DNA of 64,000 bases. Origin: Planctomycetota bacterium (lineage in GTDB: Bacteria > Planctomycetota > B15-G4 > SIAN01). The notes beneath the pieces were generated by a model. It was not told the DNA's origin. It saw only the letters and a list, made by a program, of their open reading frames with translations, and did not search any database. The first letter of the stretch is position 1; every line of letters begins with the position of its first letter. Position numbers and translations under genes: made by a program. The DNA is taken from positions 288,001 to 352,000 of the forward strand of contig JANNXA010000055.1 in assembly GCA_031409275.1 (NCBI GenBank), given 5' to 3'. Of this stretch, positions 8,996 through 56,705 are shown in pieces.

Positions 8996-10492
8996 ATGCG
9001 CACGCTGCTGCTCCTCGTCGCGTGCGCCGCGGTGATGGTCCCGACCTTCGGCTGGCTCGCGGCCCGTTCGCGCATCGAGCCGCCAACCGACGATCGACCG
9101 CCTCCCGAGCCGCGCCTCTTCGACATGGTCCCTGCCGACCTGATGACCAAGCGCGAAGGCATGACGATCGCGCCGGGTCCCTACTGCCTGGACGGCGACC
9201 ACGCCTTGCGGGAAGGGGAGGTCGAGCGCGCCGCCGCCGCCTATGCCGCGGCGCTGCGCAGCGATCACCGCGACCGCTACGCCGCCTTGCTGATCGCCTG
9301 CCTCGCGATCGAGCGAGGCGACTGGACCGCGGTCGAAGCGGCGCTGCGCAGCGCTTCGGAACCGACGCCGCCGCTCCACTCCCCTCTGCGTTCGGTACGC
9401 GTCCTCGCCGAACTGGCGAAGGCGCACGTCGACCATCCCGACGAGCCGCTCGCCGAGCTCTACCTGCGAGCCGAGCTCGCCGCCGGACGCGAGGACTTGC
9501 GCGCGGCGCTGCTCGGGCGCGACCCGTTGCGCGAGCTGTACCGCGACCGCCTCTACGGCGCCGAACCGCGCTTCGAAGCGGCGGGCGACAGCGACGTCGC
9601 CTTGGTGATCGGCGCGGCATCGCAACCGGAACTCGAGGCGCGGGCGCGCACGGCGTTCGACGGGCCGCGCCAAGGGATCGACCACGGGCGCGACCACTTC
9701 GCGTTGATCGCGCTGGCGGAACGGGGCCGCGAGGCGGCCACTCCGCTCCTCGACGAGGCGTTGCGGCGCGCCAGCGCCAATGAGCCGCACAACTCCTATT
9801 GGGAGTGGATCCGTGCGGCGCTCCATTCGCCGATGGCGCTGGCGAGCGATCGTCCCGATGGCGCCGCCCATCCGTCGCTGGGCACCGACGACGAGCCCGA
9901 CCTGCTGCCGGGATTCGCACCCGAGTCGCTGACGGCACTCGCCGACGCCACGGCGCGGCGCGAGTGCGACGCCCATGTCGCGGAGCTGCTGCACTTTGAA
10001 GTGGCGACGCGACGTGCCGCCGGCGAGCGCTTCGCGGCGGCGCGACCTCGCTCGCCGCGCGATTCGCTCTACCTCGGTTATCCCAGGCTCGCCAAGCGGC
10101 TCGCGTATCGCGCGCTGGTGGTCGACCGCTCCCTCTCGCTGCCGACCGCGCACACGCTGGTCGCTGCCGCAGTCGCTCTGTCGCTGTTCGATGCCCGACT
10201 CGCGGCCGATCCGCGCCTGGCGCCGGCGGGCGAGGACGGCGACGAGCGCGCCTTGGCCCGCTCGCTCCTCGAAGGCGCGCGCGCGCTGGGTCTCGAAATC
10301 GAACCGCTCGCGCGTCGAATCGCGACATTCGCGCCGATGCGCCCGCTTCCCGCCGCGCATGCCGCCGCCTTCAACGACGTGTTGGTCCCGCTGCCCATCC
10401 CGCGCCTCGTCGATGAGCTCTTCGAGCGCTACGCTGCCGACCTTCCCGCCTTGGCGAACGCGCTGCAACGCGCCTCCACCCGCGGCGGCTGA
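8996..10492 (+). CDS. Hypothetical exported/membrane-anchored helical (TPR-like) protein
   Basis: Hydrophobic N-terminus MRTLLLLVACAAVMV, Ala/Leu-rich helices. Stop overlaps the pepP start (TGATG). Confidence 0.6.
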   Translation: MRTLLLLVACAAVMVPTFGWLAARSRIEPPTDDRPPPEPRLFDMVPADLMTKREGMTIAPGPYCLDGDHALREGEVERAAAAYAAALRSDHRDRYAALLIACLAIERGDWTAVEAALRSASEPTPPLHSPLRSVRVLAELAKAHVDHPDEPLAELYLRAELAAGREDLRAALLGRDPLRELYRDRLYGAEPRFEAAGDSDVALVIGAASQPELEARARTAFDGPRQGIDHGRDHFALIALAERGREAATPLLDEALRRASANEPHNSYWEWIRAALHSPMALASDRPDGAAHPSLGTDDEPDLLPGFAPESLTALADATARRECDAHVAELLHFEVATRRAAGERFAAARPRSPRDSLYLGYPRLAKRLAYRALVVDRSLSLPTAHTLVAAAVALSLFDARLAADPRLAPAGEDGDERALARSLLEGARALGLEIEPLARRIATFAPMRPLPAAHAAAFNDVLVPLPIPRLVDELFERYAADLPALANALQRASTRGG

Positions 10493-11829
10493 TGCCCTCC
10501 GCCAGGAGCTCGCCCGTGGAAGTCGCCGCCCCCCTCGAACGTCGTCGCCGACTGCTCGCCGCGATGGAGGGCGGTGTCGCGCTGATCCCGACATCGGCGC
10601 AGAAACACCGCAACGGGGACGCCGAGTACCGCTTCCGGCCCGACAGCGACTTCTGGTACCTGACCGGCTTCGCAGAGCCCGATGCGTTGCTCGTGCTGTG
10701 CAAGGGGCGGCCGGAAGGCGAGCAGATCCTCTTCCTCCAGCCGCGCCAGCGCGATCAGGAGATCTGGACCGGTCGTCGACTCGGCGTCGAACGCGCGGTC
10801 GCGGAGCTTCGCGTCGACGAAGCCCATCCGATCGGCGAGTTGCCGGCACTCCTGCCGAAGCTGCTGCGCGGCCAGGATCCGCTCTACTTCAAGACGGGAG
10901 CGCGGCCCGAACTCGACCGCCAGGTCCTTGAGCTCGTGGCGACGTTGCGCACGCGGGTGCGCGAGGGCAATCCGGCGCCGTCCCGGGTGATCGATCCGAC
11001 GCCGCTGCTGGCGGAGATGCGCCTCAAGAAGGACGCCACCGAGCTCGCCACGATGCGCGAAGCGGCGGCCATCACCGCGGCGGCCCATGTCGTCGCGATG
11101 CGGATGACGCGGCCCGGCGTGACCGAGTACGCCATCGAGGCGGCCGTCGAACACGAGTTCCGACGGCGCGGCGGCGGCGGCCCGGCCTACTCCACCATCG
11201 CCGCCGGCGGGGCCAATGCGACCATCCTGCATTACATCCAGAACGACTGCACGCTCGCGGACGGGAGCCTCTTCCTCCTCGATGCCGGCGCGGAACACTC
11301 GTGCTACGCCGCGGACGTGACGCGGACGTGGCCGGTGAACGGACGCCACTCGCCAGCGCAGCGGCGGGTGGTCGAGATCGTGCTGGAAGCGCAGCGGCGC
11401 GCGATCGACTGCGTCCAACCCGGACGCAGCTTCCAGGAGGCGCACGACGTCGCGGTTCGCGTGCTGGTCGAAGGGCTCGTGGAACTCAAGCTGCTGTCCG
11501 GCAGCGTCGACGAGGCGATCGCCACCAAGACCTTCCGCCGCTTCTACATGCATCGGACCGGCCACTGGCTCGGTCTCGACGTCCACGACGCGGGCGCCTA
11601 CTTCATCGAGCGCACCACGCAGCACCGGCTGCTCGAACCGGGCATGGTGGTCACCGTCGAACCCGGTCTCTACTTCGCCGACGACGACACGACGATCCCT
11701 GCCGAGTTCCGCGGGCTAGGCGTGCGCATCGAGGACGATGTGCTGGTCACTCCCAGTGGCAATGAAGTGCTCACCGCCGCTTGCCCGAAGTCGATCGCGG
11801 AGGTCGAGGCGATCGTCGGCAGCGGCTGA
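10492..11829 (+). CDS. pepP: Xaa-Pro aminopeptidase (aminopeptidase P, M24B)
   Basis: YRFRPDSDFWYLTGF, LLDAGAE..YAADVTRTWP, HRTGHWLGLDVHD, VTVEPGLY, GVRIEDDVLVT. Confidence 0.95.
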   Translation: MPSARSSPVEVAAPLERRRRLLAAMEGGVALIPTSAQKHRNGDAEYRFRPDSDFWYLTGFAEPDALLVLCKGRPEGEQILFLQPRQRDQEIWTGRRLGVERAVAELRVDEAHPIGELPALLPKLLRGQDPLYFKTGARPELDRQVLELVATLRTRVREGNPAPSRVIDPTPLLAEMRLKKDATELATMREAAAITAAAHVVAMRMTRPGVTEYAIEAAVEHEFRRRGGGGPAYSTIAAGGANATILHYIQNDCTLADGSLFLLDAGAEHSCYAADVTRTWPVNGRHSPAQRRVVEIVLEAQRRAIDCVQPGRSFQEAHDVAVRVLVEGLVELKLLSGSVDEAIATKTFRRFYMHRTGHWLGLDVHDAGAYFIERTTQHRLLEPGMVVTVEPGLYFADDDTTIPAEFRGLGVRIEDDVLVTPSGNEVLTAACPKSIAEVEAIVGSG

Positions 11830-11835
11830 CGCCGT

Positions 11836-12762
11836 TCACCGCCACGGCACGGGGACCACCGCCTCCGCGTAGCGCTGCGCGTGGTCCTTGAAGAGCTCGG
11901 GGTGCATGCAAGCGGCCAGCAGCTCCGCCGAGTCGACGAGGCGCGGTCCCGGGCGATTGAAGTAGCTCGATCCATCGGCGAGGTAGACGCGACCGAGCGC
12001 GCCGGCCGGCCAGCGATCGAGCGGCAGCGCGGAACGGATGAGCTCGACTTCGCGCCGCCCCTGCTCGAGCGAGAAGCCGCACGGCTTCACCACCGCCACT
12101 TCGGCGTCGAGCGCTTCGAGTTCGGCACGCGACGGCGACGGCGCGTGCTCGCCGGCGACCACTCCGACCGCCACGCCGCCGGCCGATTCGACGAGTTCCG
12201 GCATCCAGGTGCCGCCCAGCATCACCGGCGCCAGCCACTCCACGGTGACGACGCGCGGGCGCTGCCACGCCGCGCCAGCGCGTCGCTCCAATTGCTCGAG
12301 ACGCCCGCGCAGGAGCGCCGCCAGCCGCGCCGCCTCGCTCGGGAGCGAGAGCGCCGCGCCGACCGCTGCGATGTCGTCGAAGAGATGCGCAAGCCGCGTC
12401 GGCGACAGCGCGACCAGCAACACGTCACGCCCCGCCATCTCGTTCAGCGCCGCGCGCACCTCATCGAGCGCCACGGCACAGACGTCGCAGAGGTCCTGAG
12501 TGATCACGACATCGGGCGCGAGCGCGCGCAGCTTTCCTGCGTCAAGCTCGAACAGCGTCAGGCCACGCGCCGACGTCGCGCGAACCTCCGCGTCGATCGC
12601 CGCGCTCCCGGTCGCGACGACGCGTGAACGGGTGAGGCGCGGCAACCTCGTGACGACGCTCGGGTAGTCGCACTCGTGGCTGATGCCCACCAACTGATCG
12701 GCCGCGCCGAGCGCCGCGACGATCTCGGTCGCCGCCGGAAGGAGAGAGATCACTCGTGCCAT
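11836..12762 (-). CDS. BtuF-like cobalamin/Fe-siderophore binding protein (helical-backbone family), no signal peptide
   Basis: RVISLLPAATEIVAALG, VGISHECDYP, PDVVITQDLC.VC, YFNRPGPRLVDSAE. Confidence 0.8.
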   Translation of the reverse strand: MARVISLLPAATEIVAALGAADQLVGISHECDYPSVVTRLPRLTRSRVVATGSAAIDAEVRATSARGLTLFELDAGKLRALAPDVVITQDLCDVCAVALDEVRAALNEMAGRDVLLVALSPTRLAHLFDDIAAVGAALSLPSEAARLAALLRGRLEQLERRAGAAWQRPRVVTVEWLAPVMLGGTWMPELVESAGGVAVGVVAGEHAPSPSRAELEALDAEVAVVKPCGFSLEQGRREVELIRSALPLDRWPAGALGRVYLADGSSYFNRPGPRLVDSAELLAACMHPELFKDHAQRYAEAVVPVPWR

Positions 12763-12806
12763 CGAACTCCTCCCGACGACGACCGCAGATCAACCGTGCC
12801 GCGACG

Positions 12807-14126
12807 CTACTGCAACGTCACCACGATCGCCTCCGAGGTGCCGTAGAACGGCCCCGCGAAGGTCTCTGCCGTGAGCAGCTGCGCCGCGAGGTCGAGCCCG
12901 GCAAGACCCGGGTTGTCGAGCACCTCGTGGTAGGCGCCGAGCCCATCGAAGAAGAGCGGGAACGTGTTCAAGCCGACGAAATCGAGCGCGAAGAAGAGCG
13001 GAGCCGGCCAGGTCCGATTGCGCAGCGTGAGTTCGCTCGCCGCGAGGCCGTTTGAGACGTAGAGCAGCCCCACGCCGTTCGGCGTCGCCCCCACCACGTC
13101 GAAGTCGAACGGCCCGACCGCGATCGGCGACGGCGGGTTCACCACCAACTGCGGCCGCTGCGGCGTCACGATCGTCATCTCGTTCAGCGAGAAGAAGTCG
13201 CTGCGAATGGCCAGCAGGGTGCCGCCCTCGGCGGGCTGCCACGGCTCGAAGGCGCCACGCGCGCCTGGCTGCCAGCGCAGATAGAGGAACGAAGTGAACG
13301 CGCCGGCCTGTGCCAGCAGAGTCTGCGCCCCGGTCGCTGGATCGAGCGAGACCAGAGTGCCGTAGTTGGCGTCGCTGATCAGCACGTCGCCGCCGTCATC
13401 GAGCGCGAGTCCGTAGGCCCCGTCGACCACGCCGAGCAGGGTTGCCTGCGTGACGTCGAACTCGCCGGGCCCGATCGCGCTCGCGAGGTCGGCCGCATCG
13501 ACTCGCCACACCTCGGAGGCACCAGGCGGCGGCGGGAAGCTGCTGGCATCGGGCGTGCAGCAGTAGAGGTTTCCGGCGGCGTCGAACGCGAGCGGGCCCG
13601 AGGCCTCGGGCGAAGCGACGACGTCGTCGTAGCTGTCGTTGCCGAAGTCGCAAAGCGCCACGTGGGAGCCGCGAAAGAACGAGAGCGCATAGGAGACGAA
13701 GGCGCGCCCCTGCGGATCGAAGGCGAGGTCGAACGGGAACTTGATGTTGAGGACGACGCCGGCGTTCAACGTCGCCAGATCGATCGCCCAGATTTCGCTC
13801 TGGTTCGAATCGCCGAAGTAGAGCTTGCTCCCATCCGGCGAGCGGGTCAGGAACGCGCCGAACGCGAAGTTCGGCGGCGTGAAGAGCGTGCGAATGAGGC
13901 TGCCATCTTGCGGAGAAAGCTCGACGACGGCGCTGCCATCGAAGAGCGCCCAATTGCCGTTGGCCAGCACTTCGAAACCGCCGACGAAGGCGCCACCGGG
14001 CGCCACCACCACCCCATGCTGCGCAAAGCCGAGTTCGGCGCTCTGCGCAACGACGGGCGGCGCCATCGCAACGGCGCAGAGCAGCGGCGCGGCCCGCCCC
14101 ATCACGATTCCACGGAAACACTTCAT
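12807..14126 (-). CDS. Secreted beta-propeller-like protein under cobalamin riboswitch control, with C-terminal accessory domain
   Basis: Signal peptide ending VVA-Q. Blade-like repeats SPDGSKLYFGD, LAFDPQGRAFVS, LAFDAAGNLY, LALDDGGDVLISD. Confidence 0.75.
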   Translation of the reverse strand: MKCFRGIVMGRAAPLLCAVAMAPPVVAQSAELGFAQHGVVVAPGGAFVGGFEVLANGNWALFDGSAVVELSPQDGSLIRTLFTPPNFAFGAFLTRSPDGSKLYFGDSNQSEIWAIDLATLNAGVVLNIKFPFDLAFDPQGRAFVSYALSFFRGSHVALCDFGNDSYDDVVASPEASGPLAFDAAGNLYCCTPDASSFPPPPGASEVWRVDAADLASAIGPGEFDVTQATLLGVVDGAYGLALDDGGDVLISDANYGTLVSLDPATGAQTLLAQAGAFTSFLYLRWQPGARGAFEPWQPAEGGTLLAIRSDFFSLNEMTIVTPQRPQLVVNPPSPIAVGPFDFDVVGATPNGVGLLYVSNGLAASELTLRNRTWPAPLFFALDFVGLNTFPLFFDGLGAYHEVLDNPGLAGLDLAAQLLTAETFAGPFYGTSEAIVVTLQ

Positions 14127-14284
14127 GCCCATCTCCCGAGCCCGCGCGACGCCCCTTCGGCACCACGCAGGATTGCGACCGGAGATCCGGTCGCGCCTCG
14201 CTCCAGACGGGGAGGCGGAGGGCGCGACGGCACGAAGGGACGCAACGCGCGAAGTGGCGCGAAACGGCTCCAGCGGACGTCCAC
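14123..14284 (-). CDS. Putative 53-aa leader ORF between the riboswitch and the beta-propeller gene
   Basis: GGAGGAG SD 7 nt before GTG 14284, inside the hairpin GCTCCTC-GAGGG-GAGGAGC. Its TGA overlaps the downstream ATG (ATGA at 14126-14123). Confidence 0.5.
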   Translation of the reverse strand: MDVRWSRFAPLRALRPFVPSRPPPPRLERGATGSPVAILRGAEGASRGLGRWA

Positions 14285-14325
14285 GGCCCGGCTCCTCCCC
14301 TCGAGGAGCACGTGAAGGACCCAGG

Positions 14326-14553
14326 CGGTGGAACGGTCTTCTGGCTCTCGGGCGATCTACTCGTCCCGCCTTCCCAGCACGCGCAGGCAACCTTGCGATT
14401 CCTCGCAAGGGCGACGCGCGCCAGTGGCGCTCCGTGCTTCGGGATCGTGATCCCTCGGCAACGTGGACTTTCGCTCCCGATTACAGCGGCGGGGCCGCGC
14501 CGGAATTGCACCGGCTTCCCGAATTCGCACCGCGAACGGCGCGGGAACCTAGC
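14326..14553 (-). ncRNA. Cobalamin (B12) riboswitch
   Basis: Minus strand: AGGTTCCC...GGGAAGCCGGTGCAATTCCGGCGCGGCCCCGCCGCTGTAA...GCCACTG...CTGGGAAGGC...GAGCCAGAAGACC. All conserved B12-element blocks occur in order. Confidence 0.95.
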
Positions 14554-25920: not shown

Positions 25921-28230
25921 TCACTCGCCGCCCAGGCGCACGAGCAACCGGCGTCCGCGATGGTCGAGCACGACGTCGCCGCGGAGCGTCAGCAAGGCGG
26001 CACGCCCATCGGCGACGAGTTCGTCGACGAGGGTGTGCCACGCGGGCGAGCCAAGCTCCACCAGCGGCAGCGGCTCCGCGGCTGCCGGCAGCGCGGGGAG
26101 TCCGATGATCTTCGAATCGACCCACTGGCCCTGATTGCAGAAGAAGGCGCGATCGCCGACCTGCTGCACCGTCGCGATCTCGACGCGCGCCAGCTTGTCG
26201 TTGCCCGCCGCGACGTCGACGAAGCCGTTGCGCAGATCGACCGTCGACTTCGACTTGCGGTCGTTGAAGTTGGAGCCCTGCGCCACCGCGCCGAACCCCG
26301 ACCGCTCGTTCATCGCCCGACCCGCGAGCGTGGCGTTGCACTGCTCCGTCAGCTGCGACCAGCTGCGCAGATCGGCGCCGTCGGTGGCGAGGAACGCGGT
26401 GTACTCGGTCAGCACCCCGAACTCGGTGGACAGGCGCAGGATCTCCTCCGTCAGCTCGACCAGCCGCGGATCGTTGCCGACCGGCGGCGCGAGAAATGGA
26501 GAGCGTTCGGCGCTGCCGAGCTCGCGCACCTGGTCGACCAGGAAGGCGATGCGGCGCGTGGCCCACAGACGCGGCACGAACGCGTTGCGCGTCGTGGCGC
26601 GCGCCAGATCGAGCGTGAAGCGGAAGGTGCTCGGCTTGCCGAGATGGCGGCCGCTCACCTGGAAGGCGAGCGGCGCCTCGCCCACGTACTGGCCCAGCAC
26701 GATCAGCGAATCGCCTTCGAACTGGTCGGGCAGCGACATCGGCGCCAGTTCGCGGATGCGCCGCGGATCGAGCGAGCCGTCCGGCGCGAGCGTGTCGAGC
26801 CGGACGTCGGAAAGGAGCGGCCCGTAGAGCTTCTTCCAGACTTTGGCGACGGCGAGCTCGACATCCTCGCCGGGCAGCACGTAGGTCGTGCTGGCACGGG
26901 TCACGTCGGCGATCCGATCGAGCAGCGGCGCGTTGACGTCCGCGCCGACGCCGAAGGTGAAGATGCGCCGCTGGTGGACGTTGCCATTCACGACGAGCTC
27001 GCGCAGCGTCACCTCGGACGTCGAGCGAACCGTCGGCAGGCCATCGGTCAGGAACAGCACGAGCGGCAGCGTCCCTTCGACATGTGGCTGTCGCAGCGCC
27101 TCGACGAGCGCGTCGTGGATGTTGGTGCCGCCATTGGGGCGCAGGCTGGCGAGGTAGCCGCGTGCCTGCGCGCTGCTGCTGGCATCCTTTACCACCGGCG
27201 CGGCGGCGAAAAGCGCCACCGTCGTCGAGTAGTCGATCAGGTTGAACGACTCGCCATCGACGAGCCCTTCGATGGCCTGCAGCGCGGCCGCGCGCGCCTG
27301 GTCCCACTTGCTCCCCGCCATGCTGCCCGAGCGATCGAGCACGACGGTCAGCTCGCGGCGCACCTGGGCGCGATCGCCATCGCTTCGCGCCGGCATCCCC
27401 GCCATCAACAGGAAGTAGCCGCCGCCCACTCGCGGATCGGGGTAAGCGAAGAGCGACGCGGTGAGCTCCTTCTGCTGCGTGAGGTAGCTGAGCCGGAAGG
27501 AGCCCGGATTGAGCCGCGCGCTCGCGGCGAGCCGCGCCGTCATCGAGCTGCCATCGACGCGAGCGACGTCGAGTTCGTGGCTCGGGGAATAGAGCATCGC
27601 CACGCCGGCGCGGCTGTGCACCGAGACATCGATGGTCCACGGCACTTGCGCCGCAAGCGACTCGCTGCGCGCCAGCACGTAGTCGATGCGCGCCCCGTCG
27701 CGCTCGAGCAGATGCTCGTAGCAGAGGCGCACGCGCTGCACGCCATGAGCGGGGATCGGGAAGACGCTGCTCTTCACCATGGCGTGGCCGGCGAATTCGA
27801 GCAGGCCGGGATCCTTCAGACGCCGCACGATCTCGTCGTAGATTCGCCGCGCTTCGTCGCGCGCCACGACTCGTGCCGTCGCTTCGGCCGCGCTTCCTTC
27901 GAGCTCGAACGCGGAGACGGCCGCGTCATCGGGGACCGGCAACAGCACGATCGCCTCTGCCGGCTGGCCGCCCTCGTTGCGCAGCTCGAGTTCGAGGGTC
28001 GTTGAGGCGGTCTGTTCGAGCAGCCGCACCGCGGCTCGCACGGAAGCGACATGGACCCCATTGGGTCGCGGCAGCAGGGCGAAGTTGTGGCTGGCCGGCG
28101 CGACGACGTCGGTGCAGTGCAGCAGCTCGGCGAACGCATCGCCGCCGCCAGTGGCGAACGCTTGCGGTGCCGCAGGCGGCGCGGCGGTCAGGGCGAGGGC
28201 GAGGGCGAGGAGCGTGGCGACAGCAACCAT
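25921..28230 (-). CDS. Secreted VIT + VWA domain protein (inter-alpha-trypsin inhibitor heavy-chain-like)
   Basis: Signal peptide, VIT signature EARRIYDEIVRRLKDPGLLE, MIDAS LDRSGSM, GGTNI, FLTDGLPT, LWATRRI, TEYTAFL. Confidence 0.9.
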   Translation of the reverse strand: MVAVATLLALALALTAAPPAAPQAFATGGGDAFAELLHCTDVVAPASHNFALLPRPNGVHVASVRAAVRLLEQTASTTLELELRNEGGQPAEAIVLLPVPDDAAVSAFELEGSAAEATARVVARDEARRIYDEIVRRLKDPGLLEFAGHAMVKSSVFPIPAHGVQRVRLCYEHLLERDGARIDYVLARSESLAAQVPWTIDVSVHSRAGVAMLYSPSHELDVARVDGSSMTARLAASARLNPGSFRLSYLTQQKELTASLFAYPDPRVGGGYFLLMAGMPARSDGDRAQVRRELTVVLDRSGSMAGSKWDQARAAALQAIEGLVDGESFNLIDYSTTVALFAAAPVVKDASSSAQARGYLASLRPNGGTNIHDALVEALRQPHVEGTLPLVLFLTDGLPTVRSTSEVTLRELVVNGNVHQRRIFTFGVGADVNAPLLDRIADVTRASTTYVLPGEDVELAVAKVWKKLYGPLLSDVRLDTLAPDGSLDPRRIRELAPMSLPDQFEGDSLIVLGQYVGEAPLAFQVSGRHLGKPSTFRFTLDLARATTRNAFVPRLWATRRIAFLVDQVRELGSAERSPFLAPPVGNDPRLVELTEEILRLSTEFGVLTEYTAFLATDGADLRSWSQLTEQCNATLAGRAMNERSGFGAVAQGSNFNDRKSKSTVDLRNGFVDVAAGNDKLARVEIATVQQVGDRAFFCNQGQWVDSKIIGLPALPAAAEPLPLVELGSPAWHTLVDELVADGRAALLTLRGDVVLDHRGRRLLVRLGGE

Positions 28231-28257
28231 GGCAGCGTCTCCGAATCGGCACCTCGT

Positions 28258-28285
28258 TCTGACCCGATCGGGTCAGTGAAGTTCC
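28258..28285 (-). promoter_or_regulatory. Putative ECF (sigmaE-type) promoter overlapping a perfect 18-bp palindrome
   Basis: Minus strand GGAACTT-N16-TCAGA. CTGACCCGATCGGGTCAG (28259-28276) is a perfect palindrome. Confidence 0.5.
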
Positions 28286-28300
28286 GTTCCGTATCGACGC

Positions 28301-28345
28301 AACCTACGGCCGCGAAGCGGCGCGGTCGGTCACAGCCGTGCAACA
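28301..28345 (-). promoter_or_regulatory. Putative OmpR-type direct repeat and -10 element
   Basis: GTCACA-N5-GCAACA (28329-28345, 11-bp period) and minus-strand TAGGTT (28306-28301). Confidence 0.35.
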
Positions 28346-28360
28346 CGCGCGAACGCGGTC

Positions 28361-29839
28361 TCAGCGCTGCACGAAGACGCCGTTGTTCTCGGTCGCGAGC
28401 CGGCGCAGGAATTCGGCGTCGATCCCCTTGCCAAGCCCGATCGTGTGGAGGATCACCCGCTTCATCGGATTCAGCCGGCGCACGAGCTGCAGCGAGCGGT
28501 CGGGCGGATCGCGTCCGCCCGGCAGGAACGGCTGGCCGTCGGTCAGCAAGAAGATCGTGTCGACCGAGGCGTCGTAGTACTTGTCGCCGGCGCCGCGGCC
28601 CGCGATGGCGAAGGCGTTCTCGAGCGAGTCGTAGATGTTGGTCGCGCCGCCTGGGCCAAGCTCCGCCACCCACTTCTGTGCCTTCTTGATCCGGTCGGGC
28701 GTCGCCTCGACCAGCCCCTTCTGCCAGCGATCGGCGCCGTTGCTGAAATAGACGATGTCGAACTTCACCTGCGGCGGCAGCTCGCCCAGCGCGCGGATCA
28801 GCTCCTTCTTCGACGCCTCCATGCGGCTCTCTTCGCCGGCGGGCGCGGGGATCGGCTGCGTCTCCGCCGCGTCGCCCCACTTCGGATTCGTCATCGACAC
28901 CTGCATCGAGCCCGAGCAGTCGATCACGTAGACGATCGAACGGGCGTCCTGCGGAATGCCGTGGAAGTAGCCATTCGCCTGCATCTGCACCGCCGGCTCG
29001 CCGCCGCCGAGCTCGACCTGCCCCGACGTGAAGCGCAAGCCTTCGGCCGCAAACCAGCTCTTCCAAGCGTTGGGACTCGCTCCGAGCTTCTGCCGGGTGA
29101 GGATCTCGAGTGCCGCGGCGAACTTCACCTGCGTGCGACCGCTCTCCTTCTCGAGCCGCAGCACCATCGGCTCGATGGCCGCGGGCACCACCAGCTTCGC
29201 GAGCGCCAGCGCCGCCTGCTCGCGTACCGTGGCTTCGGCGTGGTCGATCAACGGCAGCAGCGTCGCGCCCAGTTCCTTCGCGCGCGGCCCGAGCTCCTGC
29301 GCCAGCAGCAGCAGCGCCACCCAGTCGTCCTGGCGCTTCAGCGTCGGTGCCGCCTTCACCAGGACCGGGAGCAGCGGCTCGCCGACCGGCGCGGCGCCAT
29401 GCAGCGCCGCGAGCTTGAAGGTGAGCCCGACCGCCTCATCCCCCAGCACTCGACCGACCAACCAGACCAGCCCTTCGGTGGAATGGAGGTAGCCGAGCCG
29501 CTCGATGACGCGCGCCTGCGCCTTGCGGATCGGGTCGATCTTGGCGCGCCGCTCGACGATCTCGCCGTCCGAAAGGTCGCCCTTGGTCAGCTCCGCATGC
29601 GCGAGCTTCTCGGTCGACTGCGCCGCCGCTTCGAGCGCGAGCGACGCCTTGAGCAGGAGCTGCGCGATGGCCAACGAGTCGTAGGGACCGAGCCCATCGA
29701 GCGCGTCGACGAGTTCGACCGCCCGCTCCTTGGGATTGCGCAGGTACTTCTCGACCGTCGCGATCGCGTCCGCCTCGGCGTCGCCGCAAATCCGCGGTGA
29801 CGCCACGAGGAGCGCGAGGCAGGCGAGCAACGCCGTCAT
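28361..29839 (-). CDS. Exported HEAT-repeat + VWA domain protein
   Basis: Signal peptide, HEAT-like VREQAALALAKL, YFHGIP, MIDAS VIDCSGSM, GGATN, FLLTDGQP. Confidence 0.85.
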   Translation of the reverse strand: MTALLACLALLVASPRICGDAEADAIATVEKYLRNPKERAVELVDALDGLGPYDSLAIAQLLLKASLALEAAAQSTEKLAHAELTKGDLSDGEIVERRAKIDPIRKAQARVIERLGYLHSTEGLVWLVGRVLGDEAVGLTFKLAALHGAAPVGEPLLPVLVKAAPTLKRQDDWVALLLLAQELGPRAKELGATLLPLIDHAEATVREQAALALAKLVVPAAIEPMVLRLEKESGRTQVKFAAALEILTRQKLGASPNAWKSWFAAEGLRFTSGQVELGGGEPAVQMQANGYFHGIPQDARSIVYVIDCSGSMQVSMTNPKWGDAAETQPIPAPAGEESRMEASKKELIRALGELPPQVKFDIVYFSNGADRWQKGLVEATPDRIKKAQKWVAELGPGGATNIYDSLENAFAIAGRGAGDKYYDASVDTIFLLTDGQPFLPGGRDPPDRSLQLVRRLNPMKRVILHTIGLGKGIDAEFLRRLATENNGVFVQR

Positions 29840-29961
29840 GGTGGATCTCAAGTCGAGGTGAAGGGGCGCTTGCCGGGAGCAGCGCGCCCTCCTGATACCG
29901 ATGCAGCGCCCCCGAGCAACCGGAGCCGCCCCGGGGCGCGCCGTCGAAACCGCCGCCCCGC

Positions 29962-29988
29962 GAACTTCGCGCGAGGAAATCAGTCGAA
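29962..29988 (+). promoter_or_regulatory. Putative ECF-type promoter upstream of the ECF sigma gene
   Basis: GAACTT-N16-TCGAA, the same geometry as the site at 28285-28258. Confidence 0.5.
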
Positions 29989-30089
29989 CAGCGCGCGAAC
30001 GGCGTCGTTGACGCGATGCTGGCGGGCAACGCCAGCGCGGTGCCATGACGACGCCCGAAACGCGCTAGCGGCCAGGAGCGGGACCGACC

Positions 30090-30650
30090 TTGGACGACGC
30101 CCTCGACAGCGGGAACGACGACGGAGGCGACCTGCGTCGCTTCCTCGCCGGCGACCGCGAGTGTTTCGCCAAGGTGCTCGCCCGCCATCAAGGAGCGCTG
30201 CTGCACTACGCCCACCACCGCCTGCGCGATGCGACGGCGGCGGAGGATGCGGTGCAGGAGACCTTCCTGCGGCTCTTGCGCGAAGCGGCGGCGTTGACCG
30301 CGAACCGATCGTTGGCGGCGTGGCTCTTCCACGTCTGCCGCAACGTCTGCGCCGATGCGGCGCGCAAGGAGGTTCGCATGCAGCAACGAGAGCGGCGCGT
30401 CGCGGTCCCCGACCTCGCGCCGGCCGCGACCTGGAGCGCCGAGCAGCAAGAAGAGCAGAGCAAGGTGCGCGAACTGCTCGACGCGCTGCCCGACCACGAA
30501 CGCGAGGTGCTCACCTTGAAGGTGCACCACGGCAAGAGCTACCGCGAGATCCAGGCGCTGCTGGACACTTCGCTGCACGACGTCTTCAGCACGGCGCAGC
30601 GCGCATTGAAACGCGTCGCCGCCGGATTGCGCGCGGCCGGACTCGCCTGA
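30090..30650 (+). CDS. ECF RNA polymerase sigma-70 factor
   Basis: Region 2 AEDAVQETFLR...AWLFHVCRN, region 4 LDALPDHEREVLTL...SYREI. TTG start after AGGAG. Confidence 0.9.
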   Translation: MDDALDSGNDDGGDLRRFLAGDRECFAKVLARHQGALLHYAHHRLRDATAAEDAVQETFLRLLREAAALTANRSLAAWLFHVCRNVCADAARKEVRMQQRERRVAVPDLAPAATWSAEQQEEQSKVRELLDALPDHEREVLTLKVHHGKSYREIQALLDTSLHDVFSTAQRALKRVAAGLRAAGLA

Positions 30651-30717
30651 CGGCGCCGCCGCGACCGCCACCAAGTTTCGAACCCACCACGGCGCGCTTC
30701 GCGCTGGGAGAATCCCG

Positions 30718-33684
30718 ATGAACTCCGACCACGACTCGAACCGCGACTCGACCCCCGATGACGCCGCGCGCCCGCAGGGCTGCGCGCCTTTCCTCGACGA
30801 CCTCCCCCATCTGGTGCTCGGCGAGCTGGCGCCCGAGCGCGTCGCCGCCGTCGAAGCTCATTGCGCAAGCTGCGCCGATTGCCGCGCCGAGCGCGAGCTG
30901 CTGACCAAGTCGGCGCAACTGCTGCGACGCGACGCGACGCCGGCCGCGCCGGTGCTGCAACTCTCGACGGCGCGCCAGCAGGCGCTGCTCGAAGCGGCGG
31001 CGCGGACGGCGCCGGTTGCACCGCTCGCGCCGGTGCGCCGCTTCTGGAACCCGCGCCGCGCACTTGCGGCGGCGGCAGCGATCGCCGCGGTCGCGATCGG
31101 CAGTCAGTGGCTGTGGCGCGGGTACGACGTCGCGCCGCAACGGAACGGAACCGAATCGACGTACGAACTCGCGTCCATTCAACCGCCCGTAGGCCTTGGC
31201 GCGCCGCTTACGCCGACAAACGAACTCGCCGATCGGCTGAGCGCGGCGGCACAATCGGGCGATCGCGACGCCGCCCAATGGGCGATCACCGAACTGGCGG
31301 CAACCGATGTGTCTCTCTCGGTCGAGCAGCTCGCCTCACTCAGCATCGAACTCGCGCAAGCGGACCAATCGGCGGCGGCGATCGAGTTGTTGAAGCAGGC
31401 GCCGCCCGAGATGCAGCTCGACTCGGAGTCCCGCATGAAGCTGCGCAGGGTCGCCGCTTTCGTCGCGGCGAAGGCGCCCGCAGACGACACCTCGGCAGGG
31501 CTCGCCCAGCTCAACGCTCTCGGATACCTCGGCTCCGAATCGGAAGCCGTGCTGGACGCGGGGCTCGTCGATGACGGTGTCGACGAACTAGCGCGCCGCG
31601 AACTAGCGCGCGGCGCTGCGGCCGCCGCGAGCACGCCAGCCGCTGCGGTTGCATCGTCGCTCGAGACGACGCTCGATGCGCTTGGGTACGTGGGCCCCGT
31701 TGATGAGGCCAAGGCACTCGAAGAGCAGCGCGATTTGAAGTCGCTCCTCACGCTCGCCCGCGAGAGCGTCCCGGCGCCCGCGACGGACTCCTTCTTCACT
31801 GACCTCGGCGACGGCAGCGCAAGCGTGGCCAACGCACGGGCGCGCCTCGAGAACCTCTTCGAACTGTCCGAGGAGTCGATCCGGAGCCTCGACTCGATCC
31901 CGCAATGGGACCGTGGCGTGGACGACTACGGCGTCGGTTTGCCGCAGCTCGGCGCGTCGATCGCCGCTTCGATCCCGCAGCTCGCGACCCTCGCGCCGAG
32001 CGAGCTCTTTGCGCTGGAAGCGTCGCTTGGGCGCGCGGCCGCCGCGGGCGCCCGGCTCGACGTCGATGCGGTCGTGAAGTCGTGCCTCGACCAGCTCGCG
32101 CCGCGCCAGGGCGAGCCGCCACGCGACATGTTCTTCCGCTGGTTCGGCGACCATCCCTTCGTGCCGACGCGCGTCGACACGCTCTCCACCTTCGGGATGG
32201 ACGTCGACACCGCGAGCTACAACCTCGTGCGCAGCTACCTCGAGAAGGGGACGCTGCCGCCCAAGGTGGCCGTTCGCACCGAGGAGTTCGTCAACGCGTT
32301 CCGCCAGGAGCTCGCGGCGCCGGCGGCGGACAGCAACGACGTCTTCGCGATCACCACGGAACTCGCGCCAAGCCCGTTCGGAGGCGAAGGGCGCCACCTG
32401 CTGCGCGTCGGCCTGAAGGCGCGCGAGATCGCGAAGGAGGCGCGCAAACCCGCCGCGCTCACCTTCATCCTCGATGTCTCGGGCTCGATGGAAGAGGGCG
32501 GGCGCCTCGAACTCGTGAAGCAATCGCTGCGGCTGCTCGTGGCGCAGCTCGATGAGCGCGACACGATCGGCATCGTCGTCTTCTCCGAGAACGCGCGGCG
32601 CGCGCTGCCGCCGACGCGCGCCTCCGATGCCGCGCGCATCTTCGCGGTGCTCGACTCCTTCCGCCCGGAGCAGTCGACCAACGCCGACGCCGGCCTGCGT
32701 CTGGGCTACGAGATGGCGGTCGAGCAGCTGCGCCCCGACGCCGACAACCGCGTCATCCTCTGCTCCGACGGAGTCGCCAACGCGGGCATCACCGATCCCG
32801 CCTGGCTCTCGGCGCGCATCCGTGAGTGCAAGGGCAAGCGCATCTACCTCACGTCGATCGGCGTCGGCATGGGCAACCACAACGACGCGCTGATGGAGCA
32901 ACTCGCGGACGAGGGCGACGGGCAGTGCCACTACGTCGACGACCTCGCCGAGGCGAAGCAGATCTTCGTCGACGGCCTGACCGGCACCCTCTCGACGGTG
33001 GCACGCGACGCCAAGATCCAGGTCGAGTTCGATCCACTTGCCGTGCGCGCCTTCCGGCAGCTCGGCTACGAGAATCGGGCGATCGCTCACGCCAACTTCC
33101 GCAATGACCGCGTCGACGCGGGCGAGGTGGGCGCCGGCCAGTCGGTGGTGGCGCTCTACGAGGTCGAGCTCGCCGCGGACGCAACCGGGCCACTGGCGAC
33201 CGTGCGCTGCCGCTACGAGGATCCGCGCAACGCCACCGTGCGCGAACAGGCGCGCCTCGCCTTCGCCGCGGAGTCGGGAGCCACCGTTGCCGCGATGCCG
33301 GCACGCTGGCGGCTCGATGCCGCGGTGGCCGAGTTCGCCGAGCTGCTGCGCCAGAGCGTCCATGCTCGCGACGGCTCCTTCGGTGCGGTCGAACGGCTGG
33401 CCGAACCGCTGGTGGCCGAGCTGCCGGGAGATGCCGACGTGGCCGAGTTCGTCGCGCTGGTGAAGCAGGCGGCGCGACTGCCCGATCTCCTGCCGCGTCG
33501 CACCGAGCTCACCCGCTGCGTCGACGAGATCAAGAAGGTGCGCTGCTGGCAGCGGGAACTCGAACAGAGCGACCCGCCGCAGCGGCAGGCCAACTCCGCG
33601 CTGATGCAGCAGCTCGAGGAGCAGAATCGCAAGCTCGAGCAGGCGCTGCGCGACGCGCTGGCGAACGCGGCCAACGCGCGTTGA
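30718..33684 (+). CDS. zf-HC2 anti-sigma factor fused to a YfbK-type module (vWF_A + VWA + DUF3520)
   Basis: HxxxCxxC (HCASCADC), TM segment, STFGMDVDTASY, VRTEEFVN, MIDAS LDVSGSM, SDGVAN, GYENR, DAGEVGAGQSVVALYE. Confidence 0.9.
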   Translation: MNSDHDSNRDSTPDDAARPQGCAPFLDDLPHLVLGELAPERVAAVEAHCASCADCRAERELLTKSAQLLRRDATPAAPVLQLSTARQQALLEAAARTAPVAPLAPVRRFWNPRRALAAAAAIAAVAIGSQWLWRGYDVAPQRNGTESTYELASIQPPVGLGAPLTPTNELADRLSAAAQSGDRDAAQWAITELAATDVSLSVEQLASLSIELAQADQSAAAIELLKQAPPEMQLDSESRMKLRRVAAFVAAKAPADDTSAGLAQLNALGYLGSESEAVLDAGLVDDGVDELARRELARGAAAAASTPAAAVASSLETTLDALGYVGPVDEAKALEEQRDLKSLLTLARESVPAPATDSFFTDLGDGSASVANARARLENLFELSEESIRSLDSIPQWDRGVDDYGVGLPQLGASIAASIPQLATLAPSELFALEASLGRAAAAGARLDVDAVVKSCLDQLAPRQGEPPRDMFFRWFGDHPFVPTRVDTLSTFGMDVDTASYNLVRSYLEKGTLPPKVAVRTEEFVNAFRQELAAPAADSNDVFAITTELAPSPFGGEGRHLLRVGLKAREIAKEARKPAALTFILDVSGSMEEGGRLELVKQSLRLLVAQLDERDTIGIVVFSENARRALPPTRASDAARIFAVLDSFRPEQSTNADAGLRLGYEMAVEQLRPDADNRVILCSDGVANAGITDPAWLSARIRECKGKRIYLTSIGVGMGNHNDALMEQLADEGDGQCHYVDDLAEAKQIFVDGLTGTLSTVARDAKIQVEFDPLAVRAFRQLGYENRAIAHANFRNDRVDAGEVGAGQSVVALYEVELAADATGPLATVRCRYEDPRNATVREQARLAFAAESGATVAAMPARWRLDAAVAEFAELLRQSVHARDGSFGAVERLAEPLVAELPGDADVAEFVALVKQAARLPDLLPRRTELTRCVDEIKKVRCWQRELEQSDPPQRQANSALMQQLEEQNRKLEQALRDALANAANAR

Positions 33685-36523: not shown

Positions 36524-36567
36524 TTGTCGAGGTGATCCATCCATCGCTATATCGCGATGCACTGATG
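36524..36567 (+). promoter_or_regulatory. sigma70 promoter overlapped by SahR-like operator(s)
   Basis: TTGTCG-N18-TATATC. Palindrome CATCGC-N6-GCGATG (36542-36559) and a second ATC-N10-GAT (36551-36566). Confidence 0.55.
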
Positions 36568-37554
36568 GCCACTTTGAACGACACCAGCCGCGCCCTTAAG
36601 GCGCTCGCCGACCCGACTCGATTGCGCCTGCTGCACCTGCTGTCGCAGCACGAGCTGTCGGTGGCGGAGCTGACGCGCATCGTCGGGGCCGGCCAGTCGA
36701 CCGTCTCGCAGCACCTCGCGCAGCTGCGCAAGGCGGGACTGCTCGCCGATCGCAAGGACGGGGCGCGCTGCTACTACTCGCGCACCGCGCAGACGAGCGC
36801 CGCCAGCCAGGCGTGGAGCGAGCTTTCCGACGCCATCGCCGGTTCCGAAGAGGCGCTCCACGATGACGCCGCGCTCGCCGAGGTCCTCGCCGCTCGCGAG
36901 CAGGAGGCGCGCGCCTACTTCGACCGCATCGCCGACGCCATCGAGCACGAGTACCTGCCCGGCCGGACTTGGGAAGGGCTCGCGAAGGCGCTGGTCCGGC
37001 TGCTGCCGCGCGCGAAGGTGGCCGACCTCGGCATCGGCGGCGGCGAGCTCACCCTGCTGCTGTGCGATGCCAGCGAGCGCGTCATCGGCGTCGACTCGAG
37101 CGAGGCGATGCTGGCGCGCGTGCGCGCCAAGGCGGCGAAGGCGGGCGTCGCGAACCTCGAACTGCGCCACGGCGAGATCGAGGCGCTGCCGTTGCGCGAT
37201 GGCGAAGTCGGGCTCGTCGTCCTCTCGCAGGCGCTCCACCACGCCACGCTGCCTCAACGCGCGCTGGCCGAGGCGTTCCGCGTGCTCGCGCCCGGCGGCC
37301 GCCTGCTGGTGCTCGACCTGCTGAAGCACAAGGAGCGCTGGACCGCGGTCAAGTTCCAGGACCGCTGGCAGGGCTTCCACGAGCGCGAACTGCACGAATG
37401 GCTCGCCGAAGCGGGCTTTCGCGACATCTCCACCGCGATCGTCGCGCGCGAACGACAGCCCCCCTTCTTCCAGACCCTGCTTGCACTGGCCGCGAAACCG
37501 CAACGTGCCGCGATCGACGACAAACCGCGTCAACGCCCCGCGAGGAAACGATGA
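36565..37554 (+). CDS. sahR: ArsR-HTH + SAM-binding methyltransferase-fold regulator (SahR-like)
   Basis: LKALADPTRLRLL, SQHLAQLRKAGL, VADLGIGGG, SQALHH, LAPGGRLLVLD. Coupled to metH. Confidence 0.8.
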   Translation: MATLNDTSRALKALADPTRLRLLHLLSQHELSVAELTRIVGAGQSTVSQHLAQLRKAGLLADRKDGARCYYSRTAQTSAASQAWSELSDAIAGSEEALHDDAALAEVLAAREQEARAYFDRIADAIEHEYLPGRTWEGLAKALVRLLPRAKVADLGIGGGELTLLLCDASERVIGVDSSEAMLARVRAKAAKAGVANLELRHGEIEALPLRDGEVGLVVLSQALHHATLPQRALAEAFRVLAPGGRLLVLDLLKHKERWTAVKFQDRWQGFHERELHEWLAEAGFRDISTAIVARERQPPFFQTLLALAAKPQRAAIDDKPRQRPARKR

Positions 37555-40500
37555 AGCGTCCACCGCTCCCCGAGCTCGCCCGCCAGCGCGTCGTGATCTT
37601 CGACGGCGGCATGGGTACGTCGTTGATGAACCGCAAGCTGCCGCTCGCCGACTACCTCGACTGCGAGAACTGCTCGGAGACGGTGAACCTCGGCCGCCCG
37701 GACGTGATCGAGTCGATCCACCGCGACTTCTTCGCCGCTGGCAGCGACGCGGTCGAGACCAACACGTTCGGCGCCAATGAAGTGGTGCTGGCCGAGTTCA
37801 ACCTCGCGGCACGGACGCGCGAGATCAACCGCATCGCGGCGCAGCTGGCGCGCAAGGCAGCCGACGCCTTCGAGACGGCGGAACGGCCGCGCTACGTCGT
37901 CGGATCGATCGGGCCCGGCACGCGGCTGCCGTCGCTCGGCCACACCACCTTCGCAGTGCTCGAGAAAAGCTACCACGAGCAGACGCAGGGGCTCCTCGAC
38001 GGCGACGTCGACGCGGTGCTGATCGAGACGTGCCAGGACATCCTGCAGACCAAGGCCGCGCTGTGCGGAGTGCTCGCAGCCTTCGAGGCGCGCAAGAAGC
38101 GCGTGCCGATCATGGTGCAGGTCACCATGGAGACCACCGGCACGATGCTGGTCGGCACCGAGCTGTCGGCGGCGCTCGTCGCGCTCGAGCCCTATCCCAT
38201 CGACGTGATCGGGCTGAACTGCGCGACGGGCCCGCAGGAGATGGGCGAACACGTGGCCTACCTCTGCCGCCACGCGCCGATGCTGGTCTCCTGCCAGCCC
38301 AACGCCGGCCTGCCGCAGATGGTCGACGGTCAGCCCCACTACCCGCTCAAGCCGGCCGACCTCGCGCGCTGGCTCGAACGGTTCGTGCGCGAGGATGGCG
38401 TGCGCATCGTCGGCGGCTGCTGCGGCACCACGCCCGAACACCTGCGCGCCGTGGCGAAGGCGTGCGCCGGGCTGGCTCCGGCCGCGCAGTCGCCGACCTG
38501 GGTGCCATCGTTGTCGAGCCTCTACGGCGCGGTGACGATCCGCCAAGACAGCTCGTTCCTGATCATCGGCGAGCGCACCAACGCCAACGGCAGCAAGCAG
38601 TTCAAGAAGCTGCTGGAGAAGGGCGACCACGACGGCATGGTCGCGATGGGACGCGAGCAGCTCGCCGAGGGAGCGCACGTCGTCGATCTCTGCACGGCCT
38701 ACGTCGGACGCGACGAGGTGGTCGACATGTGCGACGCGGTGAAGCGTTTCTCGACGCAGGTCTCCGCCCCGCTCTCGATCGATTCGACCGAGGCGCCGGT
38801 GCTCGAGGCCGCGCTCGCGCTCTGCGGCGGCCGCTCGCTGATCAACTCGATCCACATGGAGGATGGCGAGGAGCGCATGGCTCGCGTCCTGCCGCTCGCG
38901 AAGAAGTTCGGCGCCGCCGTCGTCGCGCTGACCATCGACGAGAAGGGGATGGCGAAGGAGCGCGACGAGAAGGTCGCGGTCGCCGAGCGCATCGTCGGTC
39001 TCGCCTGCCGCAAATGGGGCCTGCGCCCCTCCGACATCCTGATCGACCCGCTCACCTTCACCATCTGCACCGGCAACGAGGACGACCGCAAGCTCGGCCT
39101 TTGGACGCTCGAAGGGATCGAGCAGATCAAGCAGCGGATGCCGGAATGCCACACGCTGCTCGGCCTGTCGAACATCTCGTTCGGGCTGAAGCCGCCGGCG
39201 CGCCACGTGCTCAACTCCGTCTTCCTCCACCATGCACGCCTGCGTGGACTCGACGCCGCGATCGTCCACGCGGCGAAGATCAAGCCGCTCTACCAGATCC
39301 CGGAACAGCACCGGCAGGTGGCCGAGGACCTGATCTTCGATCGGCGCCGCCCGAGCTACGACCCGCTGCACGAGCTGATCGGCCTGTTCGAGAACGTCGT
39401 CGAGGAGCGGTCGGCGCGGCCGGTCGCGCTCAGCATCGAAGAGCGCCTGAAGGAGCGCATCGTCCGCGGCGAGCGGCCGGGCATCGAAGTCGACCTCGAG
39501 CAGGCGCTCGAGCGCTACGCGCCGCTCGCGATCATCAACGACCTGCTGCTCGACGGCATGAAGACGGTCGGCGAGCTGTTCGCCAGCGGCGAGATGCAGC
39601 TGCCCTTCGTGCTGCAGTCGGCGGAGACGATGAAAGCGGCGGTCGCTTTCCTCGAACCGAAGATGGAGCGCAAAGCGGGCGACAGCAAGGGACGCATCGT
39701 GCTCGCCACCGTGCGCGGCGACGTCCACGACATCGGCAAGAACCTCGTCGACATCATCCTCAGCAACAACGGCTACACGATCTACAACCTCGGCATCAAG
39801 CAGCCGCTCTCGACGATGCTGGAAGCGGCGCGGACGCATGCCGCCCACGCCATCGGCATGTCGGGACTGCTGGTGAAGTCGACGGTCGTGATGAAGGAGA
39901 ACCTCGAGGAGATGAACCGGCTCGGCATCACCTTGCCGGTGATCCTCGGTGGCGCGGCGCTCACCCGCGGCTACGTCGAGCGCGACCTGCGCGCGATCTA
40001 CAAGGGGCCGTTGTCGTACGCACGCGACGCGTTCGAGGGGCTCGAGCTCGCCGGTCGCATCTGCGCGTCCGAGCCGGTGAGCGCGCAGGCGAGCACCGCG
40101 GCGGCGACGGCCCTCGCGAGCGGCGCCGCCGGTGCCGAGGATGCCCGGCAGGACGCCGGTGCCGCCGCCGAGGCAGCGAGCGCCGGGCTCGCGCCGGTCG
40201 AACTGCCGCGCACCTTCTCGCTGCGCGAGCGGCCGATCGTCCACGACGAGGCGCTCGCGCCTCCCGTCGTGCTCGACGTGGTCCCGGTTCCCGACGTGCC
40301 GTTCTTCGGCACGCGCGTGGTCGAGAAGATCTCGCTGCAGTCGCTCGTCCCGCTGATGAACGAGCGCCTCCTGTTCCAGTTCCAGTGGGGCTTCAAACGC
40401 GGCGCCCACAGCGAGGCGGAATGGAAGGCGCAGCTCGAGGAGCACGCCCGGCCGGCCTACCTCGAATTGCTGAAGCGTTGCGCGCAGGAGGAGATCCTGC

Positions 40501-56532: not shown

Positions 56533-56567
56533 CCTAGCGCGTCGCGAACGAACGAGAACGATCCTGA

Positions 56568-56613
56568 TTCCGCCCGTCGCCGGGAGAGTTCCGGCGGCGG
56601 GCGGAACCTTTTT
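56568..56613 (+). terminator. Intrinsic terminator
   Basis: Stem TTCCGCCCGTCGCCGG/CCGGCGGCGGGCGGAA followed by CCTTTTT. Confidence 0.85.
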
Positions 56614-56705
56614 CAGACCAGCCCACGCTTCAGAGCGAGCCTCCCGACACCGAACTCACTGCTCGACGGATTCGAGCACCTGGGGATTCGGAGGTCTGGA
56701 ACGAC

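Follow-up and report, generated by a model that had tools for sequence, protein, structure and literature searches.

Predicted six-bladed propellers behind cobalamin riboswitches: candidate surface cobamide-capture proteins of Planctomycetota and Verrucomicrobiota

What does a cobalamin (vitamin B12) riboswitch serve when the operon behind it encodes no TonB-dependent receptor, permease or ATPase? The question is raised by a 64,000-nucleotide stretch of a Planctomycetota bacterium (contig JANNXA010000055.1, positions 288,001 to 352,000; hereafter the window), in which an RF00174 riboswitch on the minus strand is followed by an open reading frame (ORF) for a 439-residue propeller protein and, after a gap of 44 bp, by one for a 308-residue protein with a BtuF-like fold (Table 1). 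A sequence-only reading of the window had proposed that the propeller is an uncharacterised surface protein that binds cobamides. In this study, we consider it probable that the propeller is a surface cobamide-capture protein. Support for such a role comes from the linkage of its family to the riboswitch, from operons of the btu type in relatives, from fusion or adjacency to a companion family (A6) with a weak likeness to BtuH, from exchangeable tails of predicted surface proteins, and from the apparent demand of the organism for B12.

The riboswitch and its linkage to the propeller family

The riboswitch was matched by cmscan at 14334-14542 on the minus strand with a score of 66.3 bits (gathering threshold 31.5 bits; E 3.6e-14). 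RF00174 is the sole RNA family that Rfam finds in the window, and this locus holds its only match in the window's own genome (G000; 5.59 Mb searched, 92.9% complete). The alignment spans model positions 22-169 of 189. The 5' motif AGGUUC lies just upstream of the match, at about 14552, and the B12 box at the 3' end reads GAGCCAGAAGACC; the earlier description of the riboswitch as complete is fair despite the P1 ends that Rfam leaves unaligned. In the minimum free energy (MFE) fold of the leader (z -2.5), four of the five bases of the Shine-Dalgarno sequence GGGAG (14137-14133) are paired, with 14267-14261 as the predicted partner, and no terminator-like site was found between 14127 and 14333. 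Since the Shine-Dalgarno sequence is mostly paired in the predicted fold, translational control of the propeller gene by the riboswitch seems likely, although such pairing is weak evidence in high-GC sequence. Genes and flanks were classified by Pfam and NCBIfam. Upstream lies a NAD synthetase gene, and an aminopeptidase P gene (10492-11829, plus strand) runs convergently after the 308-residue ORF; the operon is therefore without receptor, permease or ATPase, as the sequence-only reading had stated.

The association of the propeller with the riboswitch extends far beyond this locus. A profile from 48 proteins including the query (alignment A1, out of 49 from a database search) was run over 401 Planctomycetota genomes, and riboswitches were searched afterwards, counting only RF00174 matches above cut-off (7 weaker matches were dropped). 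The propeller family was found in 55 genomes, at 61 loci, and the labels of homologues also place the window's organism in this phylum. At 53 of the 61 loci an RF00174 match lies no more than 800 nt upstream in the same orientation (median 167 nt); at two further loci the distance is 1.3 and 3.1 kb and the intervening genes share the strand. The linked loci thus number 55/61, and they cover 52 of the 55 genomes and 10 of 11 families. The six unlinked loci comprise three close to the end of a contig (G090, G109, G153), a C-terminal fragment, likewise at a contig end (G240), and the additional copies of two genomes (G389, G397). Where a genome carries a single riboswitch, it stands at the propeller gene in 40 of 42 cases, and 55 of all 72 riboswitches in these Planctomycetota genomes are linked to a propeller. 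Similar figures came from metagenome loci (17/20 scanned, 36 fetched) and from further genome loci (12/15). A propeller-only profile (A3, 44 sequences) matched 18 of 251 Verrucomicrobiota genomes; with three more from another search, 14 of 21 loci are riboswitch-linked. The linkage thus spans two phyla and sequences that are about 20-25% identical. An association of homologues with B12 riboswitches had been set beforehand as the test of the proposal, and these counts bear it out; because of them, a chance association of riboswitch and propeller is excluded. In one family (f2), three of eight genomes carry two propeller copies, each behind its own riboswitch. A thiamine pyrophosphate (TPP) riboswitch lies on the opposite strand 3 kb from the B12 riboswitch of another genome (G096, L048:1235-1332).

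The propeller, its tail and its companions

The AlphaFold model of the 439-residue protein, computed on alignment A1 (pLDDT 93), comprises a low-confidence leader (residues 1-27), a set of 24 strands in six blades (about 30-323) and, after these, an all-beta domain (about 326-438). The protein passes no Pfam or NCBIfam cut-off, and the family motifs of the propeller domain are FGSF, GES, (F)NYD and SGP (A3). The top structural matches are six-bladed proteins of many functions, tied at Z 24-26 with 10-20% identity, and the nearest neighbours in a protein language model (ESM Atlas) are generic NHL clusters. The predicted export agrees with the earlier reading: the hydrophobic leader ends in VVA/Q, and a crude hydropathy test (not SignalP) finds the N-terminal window hydrophobic in 47 of 48 homologues. 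There is no lipobox cysteine at the cleavage site, and the family consensus, as read by eye, is AQ with no conserved Cys.

The C-terminal domain is likely a lineage-specific domain for surface sorting or anchoring. In relatives the tail is exchanged for PEP-CTERM (L111, L113 and many Verrucomicrobiota) or for dockerin (L083, L087, P0038). A first tail profile, built from close homologues, matched only itself in G000; after iteration from a broader seed, 57 of 13,003 ORF tails matched and none of the reversed tails. The edges of this 57-member family are soft, because its members emerged only after that iteration. It is from the exchange among PEP-CTERM, dockerin and the lineage tail that we infer surface display. 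The unnamed beta domain of about 115 residues ends dozens of predicted secreted proteins of G000 (for example C34:111734-113659 and C18:89422-95881); that of the window protein has no Pfam or NCBIfam match and is a candidate lineage-specific sorting signal.

Gene calls in relatives came from our own composition-based caller. Most Planctomycetota copies of the propeller gene stand alone or ahead of unrelated genes, and a receptor gene lies beside the propeller at none of the Planctomycetota loci. In G384 the order is riboswitch-btuC-btuD-btuF-propeller. A TonB-dependent receptor shares the propeller operon at three Verrucomicrobiota loci (G628, G416, G403), and the receptors of the latter two belong to the same clade as that of G628. 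The G628 order is riboswitch-propeller-receptor-A6 gene, followed by BtuF-like and ATPase genes (these last two identified by eye); over its N-terminal 406 residues the receptor matches TIGR01779 best, at E 9e-30 and far below cut-off. Of the other riboswitches in these genomes with readable downstream genes, the majority stand ahead of A6 genes or of operons of the btuF/C/D type.

For the companion family A6, the one link to BtuH is a weak match (E 0.00087) to residues 373-478 of 8blw_B, where BtuG1 has its H-domain; the family also gives a weak match to LIC_13355, and PDB searches that started from single sequences of two A6 members yielded no significant match. Among the 21 Verrucomicrobiota loci, A6 is fused to the propeller at six and adjacent or in the same operon at 13, and six of the seven loci where no riboswitch was detected are among these A6-associated loci; at four Planctomycetota loci it is adjacent. 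The fusions (L130, L251, L227, L228, L229, L257; G401, G405, G593, G640, G515, G470) have the domain order of Bacteroides BtuGH with a different propeller. Prepilin-type genes (GFTLxELL; DUF1559 in L113) follow the propeller and A6 gene at L111, L112, L113, L132 and L251-L257, and uptake may involve a pilin-like component. PF20221 and PF07596 gave no match in G000, but their positive controls gave none either.

How does the family compare with the known capture proteins of Bacteroides? BtuG and BtuK are seven-bladed propellers (PMC13616437), and 8BLW is the BtuB1G1 complex, in which BtuG1 carries a C-terminal BtuH domain (PMC10404256). The window protein resembles BtuG (BtuG1/GH, G2 and G3 of B. 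thetaiotaomicron) as an exported propeller under a B12 riboswitch (PMC13616437; PMC10404256), and the likeness goes further in relatives, with the receptor-bearing operons and with the BtuH-like fusion in six genomes, as in BtuGH. It differs in having six predicted blades rather than seven, in lacking a lipobox and carrying C-terminal tails as predicted anchors, whereas BtuG is a surface lipoprotein, in showing no detectable sequence match, and in having no receptor in the window operon or beside Planctomycetota loci. Like BtuK1 (BT1486, B. thetaiotaomicron), a second propeller-type B12 binder in a riboswitch-led operon, it is not known as a stable lid of BtuB; BtuK, however, is a seven-bladed lipoprotein with a PKD domain at its N-terminus (PMC13616437), whereas the window propeller starts right after its leader, with no such domain, and has six blades and a C-terminal tail. 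The BtuH domain (BtuH1/H2 and the H-domain of BtuG1; PMC8941943) is weakly matched by A6, a family that accompanies the propeller in relatives and is distinct from the window protein. With NHL/SGL-type propellers (Pizza6, DFPase, lactonases, PknD) the family shares its fold and its language-model neighbourhood, but identity is low, the window protein misses every Pfam cut-off, and a B12-riboswitch context was not found reported for them in the literature covered.

The sequence-only reading had called for a structure comparison with BtuG, and kinship did not emerge from it: the model is six-bladed and BtuG is not among the structural and profile matches listed, although generic propellers fill those lists and may hide a distant kinship. 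We rejected membership of the BtuG family on blade number and the missing lipobox; absence from the listed matches alone would be insufficient. Taken by analogy, the propeller likely works like BtuG, BtuK and BtuH but outside those families. We found no description of the propeller family in the literature covered (subscription papers and supplements lay outside its scope), and the available portions of PMC13616437, PMC13398666 and PMC8941943 do not mention 'Planctomyc' or 'Verrucomicrob'.

Table 1. Positions of the operon features and of MetH in the window
Feature	Position	Strand	Basis
Cobalamin riboswitch aptamer RF00174, long P6 extension	14334..14553	-	Rfam covariance match and 5' AGGUUC
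Leader, predicted expression platform	14127..14333	-	MFE fold, z -2.5; no terminator-like site
Propeller ORF, 439 residues	12807-14126	-	GGGAG 6 nt before ATG at 14126
Predicted signal peptide, residues 1-27, ending VVA/Q	14046..14126	-	Sequence; low pLDDT; homologue leaders
Predicted six-bladed beta-propeller domain, residues 28-322, candidate cobamide-binding	13161..14045	-	AlphaFold, structural matches, alignment A3
C-terminal all-beta domain, residues ~326-439, lineage-specific tail	12807..13160	-	Iterated profile; swapped in relatives
Class III substrate-binding fold (BtuF/heme-binding type), 308 residues, likely cytosolic	11836-12762	-	PF01497, alignment A4, AlphaFold
MetH, B12-dependent methionine synthase, B12 consumer, outside the operon	37551-41075	+	PF02574, PF00809, PF02607, PF02310, PF02965

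The second gene, a BtuF-fold protein without signal peptide

The gene that follows the propeller has its own ribosome-binding site (GGAGGAG), and its product was correctly recognised from sequence as BtuF-like and signal-less: PF01497 matches at E 3e-12 and the fold starts at residue 3. In the AlphaFold model (pLDDT 94) it has the two-lobed class III fold of E. coli BtuF and of the heme-binding proteins 2r79/2r7a, with Z 25.4 (2r79) and 24.9 to the heme-binding proteins and Z 23.5 to BtuF (1n4a, root-mean-square deviation 2.8, 241 residues aligned). Unlike BtuF, it has no permease or ATPase gene beside it, it belongs to a family nearly always without signal peptide, and it carries invariant HEC, CxxC and PCG motifs; the NCBIfam BtuF model PRK03379 scores 19.8 bits against a cut-off of 234. 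The family is very large: of the 7,998 scored, 5,967 are relatives at E 1e-20. H29, C31, C92, C95 and C228 are invariant in alignment A4, and the motifs recur in the 120 listed homologues (HEC 120, CxxCAV 119, PCG/ACG 120). Since 113 of 118 homologues start at most 12 residues from the fold, the missing signal peptide is, judged from these sequences, a trait of this four-cysteine family. A secreted BtuF was rejected as its identity. Another PF01497 gene of G000 (C10:212854-213708) also lacks a signal peptide and is 30% identical to this one, and the available part of PMC10878165 contains nothing on signal-less BtuF-like proteins.

Does the gene belong to a capture module, as was first suggested? 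It follows the propeller at 8 of 8 loci of at least 58% identity (some from the same organisms) and at 0 of 43 loci of at most 50% identity with at least 400 nt beyond the match; even the same-family genome G389 lacks it there. The suggestion was rejected outside the window's clade, to which the coupling is confined. The four-cysteine family occurs in 55 of 251 phylum genomes. At outside loci a riboswitch lies within 1.5 kb in 1 of 20 scanned, and in the eight genomes outside the clade with both genes the four-cysteine gene stands far from any switch. This distribution is what a passenger with no role in B12 handling would leave, an explanation that applies to 11836-12762 only and to which we give somewhat less than an even chance. 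It is opposed by the B12-linked neighbours at 6 of 28 outside loci (pduO twice, cobB once, DUF6580 three times), by an independent B12 context in G191 (L258, C29:27500-32066), where the order is riboswitch-pduO-signal-less four-cysteine gene-btuF-btuC-btuD-like, and by a secreted 434-residue four-cysteine relative with a weak N-terminal DUF4430 match directly behind a B12 riboswitch in G262 (L214:332-1633, C155). A B12-related cytosolic role is the modestly favoured alternative: the protein would likely handle corrinoids or metals in the cytosol and would have joined the operon only in the window's clade. At L211, L213, L189, L195 and L204, genes for a DUF6580 membrane protein and a PF01902-type ATP pyrophosphatase recur behind B12 riboswitches and beside the four-cysteine gene; the two products are candidates for a B12 transporter and a salvage enzyme.

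Proposed capture and its alternatives

If the propeller captures cobamides, scarcity of B12 would turn the switch off and allow the protein to be made, after which it would be exported and held at the surface by its C-terminal tail. A corrinoid would bind on the face formed by the FGSF, GES, NYD and SGP loops and, as with BtuG, BtuK and BtuH in Bacteroides, would be handed to uptake machinery encoded elsewhere, crossing the outer membrane through an unlinked TonB receptor or another path and the inner membrane through a BtuFCD-like transporter. A candidate for the latter is an ABC operon with a lipobox (PRK03379, E 3e-27) at C51:76527-79215 of G000, which is unlinked and has no riboswitch; it lies downstream of folE- and queD-like genes and is likely the inner-membrane step. 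Thus the lack of BtuB and BtuCD claimed earlier holds for the operon and not genome-wide, as G000 has this transporter and also three TonB receptors, two best classed as heme type and one as TIGR01782. None of the three is clearly a BtuB, and TIGR01779 matches only their plugs.

On the side of demand, MetH, which the sequence-only reading had placed about 23 kb away, lies 23.0 kb from the operon with all five domains and is a real B12 consumer, though a MetE-type gene (PF01717) is also present, so MetH may not be the only methionine route of G000. Directly upstream of metH, an ArsR-methyltransferase fusion (36532-37551) is probably its regulator. The B12-binding domain PF02310 has 10 matches in G000, seven above cut-off, and CobS was not found in this 92.9% complete genome; given such domains and no CobS, G000 likely scavenges B12.

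Several results weigh against the capture reading. The genomes are related, so the linkage counts are not independent. The top structural matches are all generic six-bladed propellers, many of them enzymes, and BtuG is absent among the best 60 of 122 PDB matches to the propeller profile. The link from A6 to BtuH is weak and rests on one match, and no A6 domain or gene was found in G000. No BtuB above cut-off was found in 76 propeller-bearing genomes, a search limited by incomplete genomes and divergent receptors; a near-full-length TIGR01779 match occurs in only one (G109) of the 55 Planctomycetota, and in family f2 (G022, G055, G165, G182, G199, G262, G350, G363) 0 of 8 genomes match at E 1e-15, all of them with a riboswitch-led propeller. 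The route across the outer membrane lacks an explanation, as no such receptor was found in these genomes or next to the propeller of Planctomycetota. The top-face loops are no better conserved than the bottom ones (mean 1.37 vs 1.46 bits, p 0.90), and the acidity of the propeller (-7.8 per 100 residues) is ordinary beside the tailed proteins of G000 (median -6.5, n=56). Two would-be supports were accordingly rejected: top-face conservation as evidence of a pocket, being not significant across all loop positions, and an acidic surface as a sign of B12 attraction, control proteins being equally acidic. The highest-ranked conserved residues (F89, F92, D/E106, F130-D133, S176-P178) sit at blade entrances, a clustering that may be structural in origin.

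One hypothesis that fits part of these results is that the propeller is an uptake accessory which does not itself bind B12, serving instead as a scaffold or lid, either to present a BtuH-like binder or to dock on a pilin-like complex or a receptor. The frequent fusion or adjacency to the BtuH-like domain and to DUF1559/prepilin genes would suit it, as would the conservation pattern and the precedent of BtuK2, which is encoded in a btu operon yet did not bind cobamide (PMC13616437). We nonetheless find it unlikely, as the propeller stands behind the only switch of G000 and of 40 of the 42 genomes with one riboswitch, and most Planctomycetota loci have no BtuH-like neighbour; a scaffold without a co-regulated binder is hard to explain. 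A second hypothesis, that the propeller is an exported salvage or release enzyme of the lactonase or hydrolase type, freeing or remodelling cobamides or their lower ligand outside the cell, appears highly unlikely. The best folds do include lactonases, DFPase, PQQ (pyrroloquinoline quinone) dehydrogenases and a Diels-Alderase (Z 24-26), PF08450 (SMP-30/gluconolactonase) scores 18.7 bits against a cut-off of 26.3 on the window protein and passes in one distant Verrucomicrobiota homologue, and D133, D/E106 and D310 are conserved at 78-89%. But these folds are six-bladed types unrelated to one another that tie in score at 10-18% identity, and no column, acidic or other, is invariant among the 44 sequences of A3, where only S, G, P and G come near. 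B12 riboswitches also control cobalt uptake, and the second protein's top folds and two of the three G000 receptors point to heme, yet an operon for cobalt or heme/tetrapyrrole acquisition, with the four-cysteine protein as an intracellular metal or tetrapyrrole sink, is barely credible, as cobalt for synthesis would be of little use in a genome where no CobS was found and relatives sit with btuFCD-type and BtuH-like genes.

Surface capture of cobamides by the propeller remains the probable reading. A bolder, combined proposal goes further: the propeller would belong to a new class of surface receptors in the PVC superphylum that evolved independently and has high affinity for cobamides. In many Planctomycetota it would form the whole riboswitch-controlled front end of B12 uptake and feed an outer-membrane route not of the BtuB type, and the four-cysteine protein would be a corrinoid chaperone of the cytosol whose fold was taken over from a periplasmic protein. 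Taken jointly, we regard these claims as doubtful.

Elsewhere in the window, three VWA-domain genes (VIT-VWA, VWA and YfbK-type; 25924-33681) lie by a probable extracytoplasmic function (ECF) sigma factor gene and a two-component pair, and a tandem pair of secreted-looking proteins of about 1,000 residues (53533-59678) has no Pfam match at E 1e-8.

The contribution of this locus lies in its stand-alone form, its six-blade model and the linkage counts. Its second gene leads to a very large and apparently unstudied cytosolic family, which databases label as periplasmic or cobalamin-binding on evidence that we did not find. The locus also sharpens the question of how B12 passes the outer membrane in planctomycetes without a recognisable BtuB. 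Dedicated surface proteins for B12 capture have been characterised almost only in gut Bacteroides. If the capture reading is true, the presence of such a six-bladed family, almost always riboswitch-controlled, in two environmental phyla would mean that this strategy arose again on another scaffold, and the parallel would reach as far as the fusion of a propeller with a BtuH-like domain. The propeller would then be a small, soluble protein open to direct tests, and its gene could mark B12 scavenging in metagenomic data.

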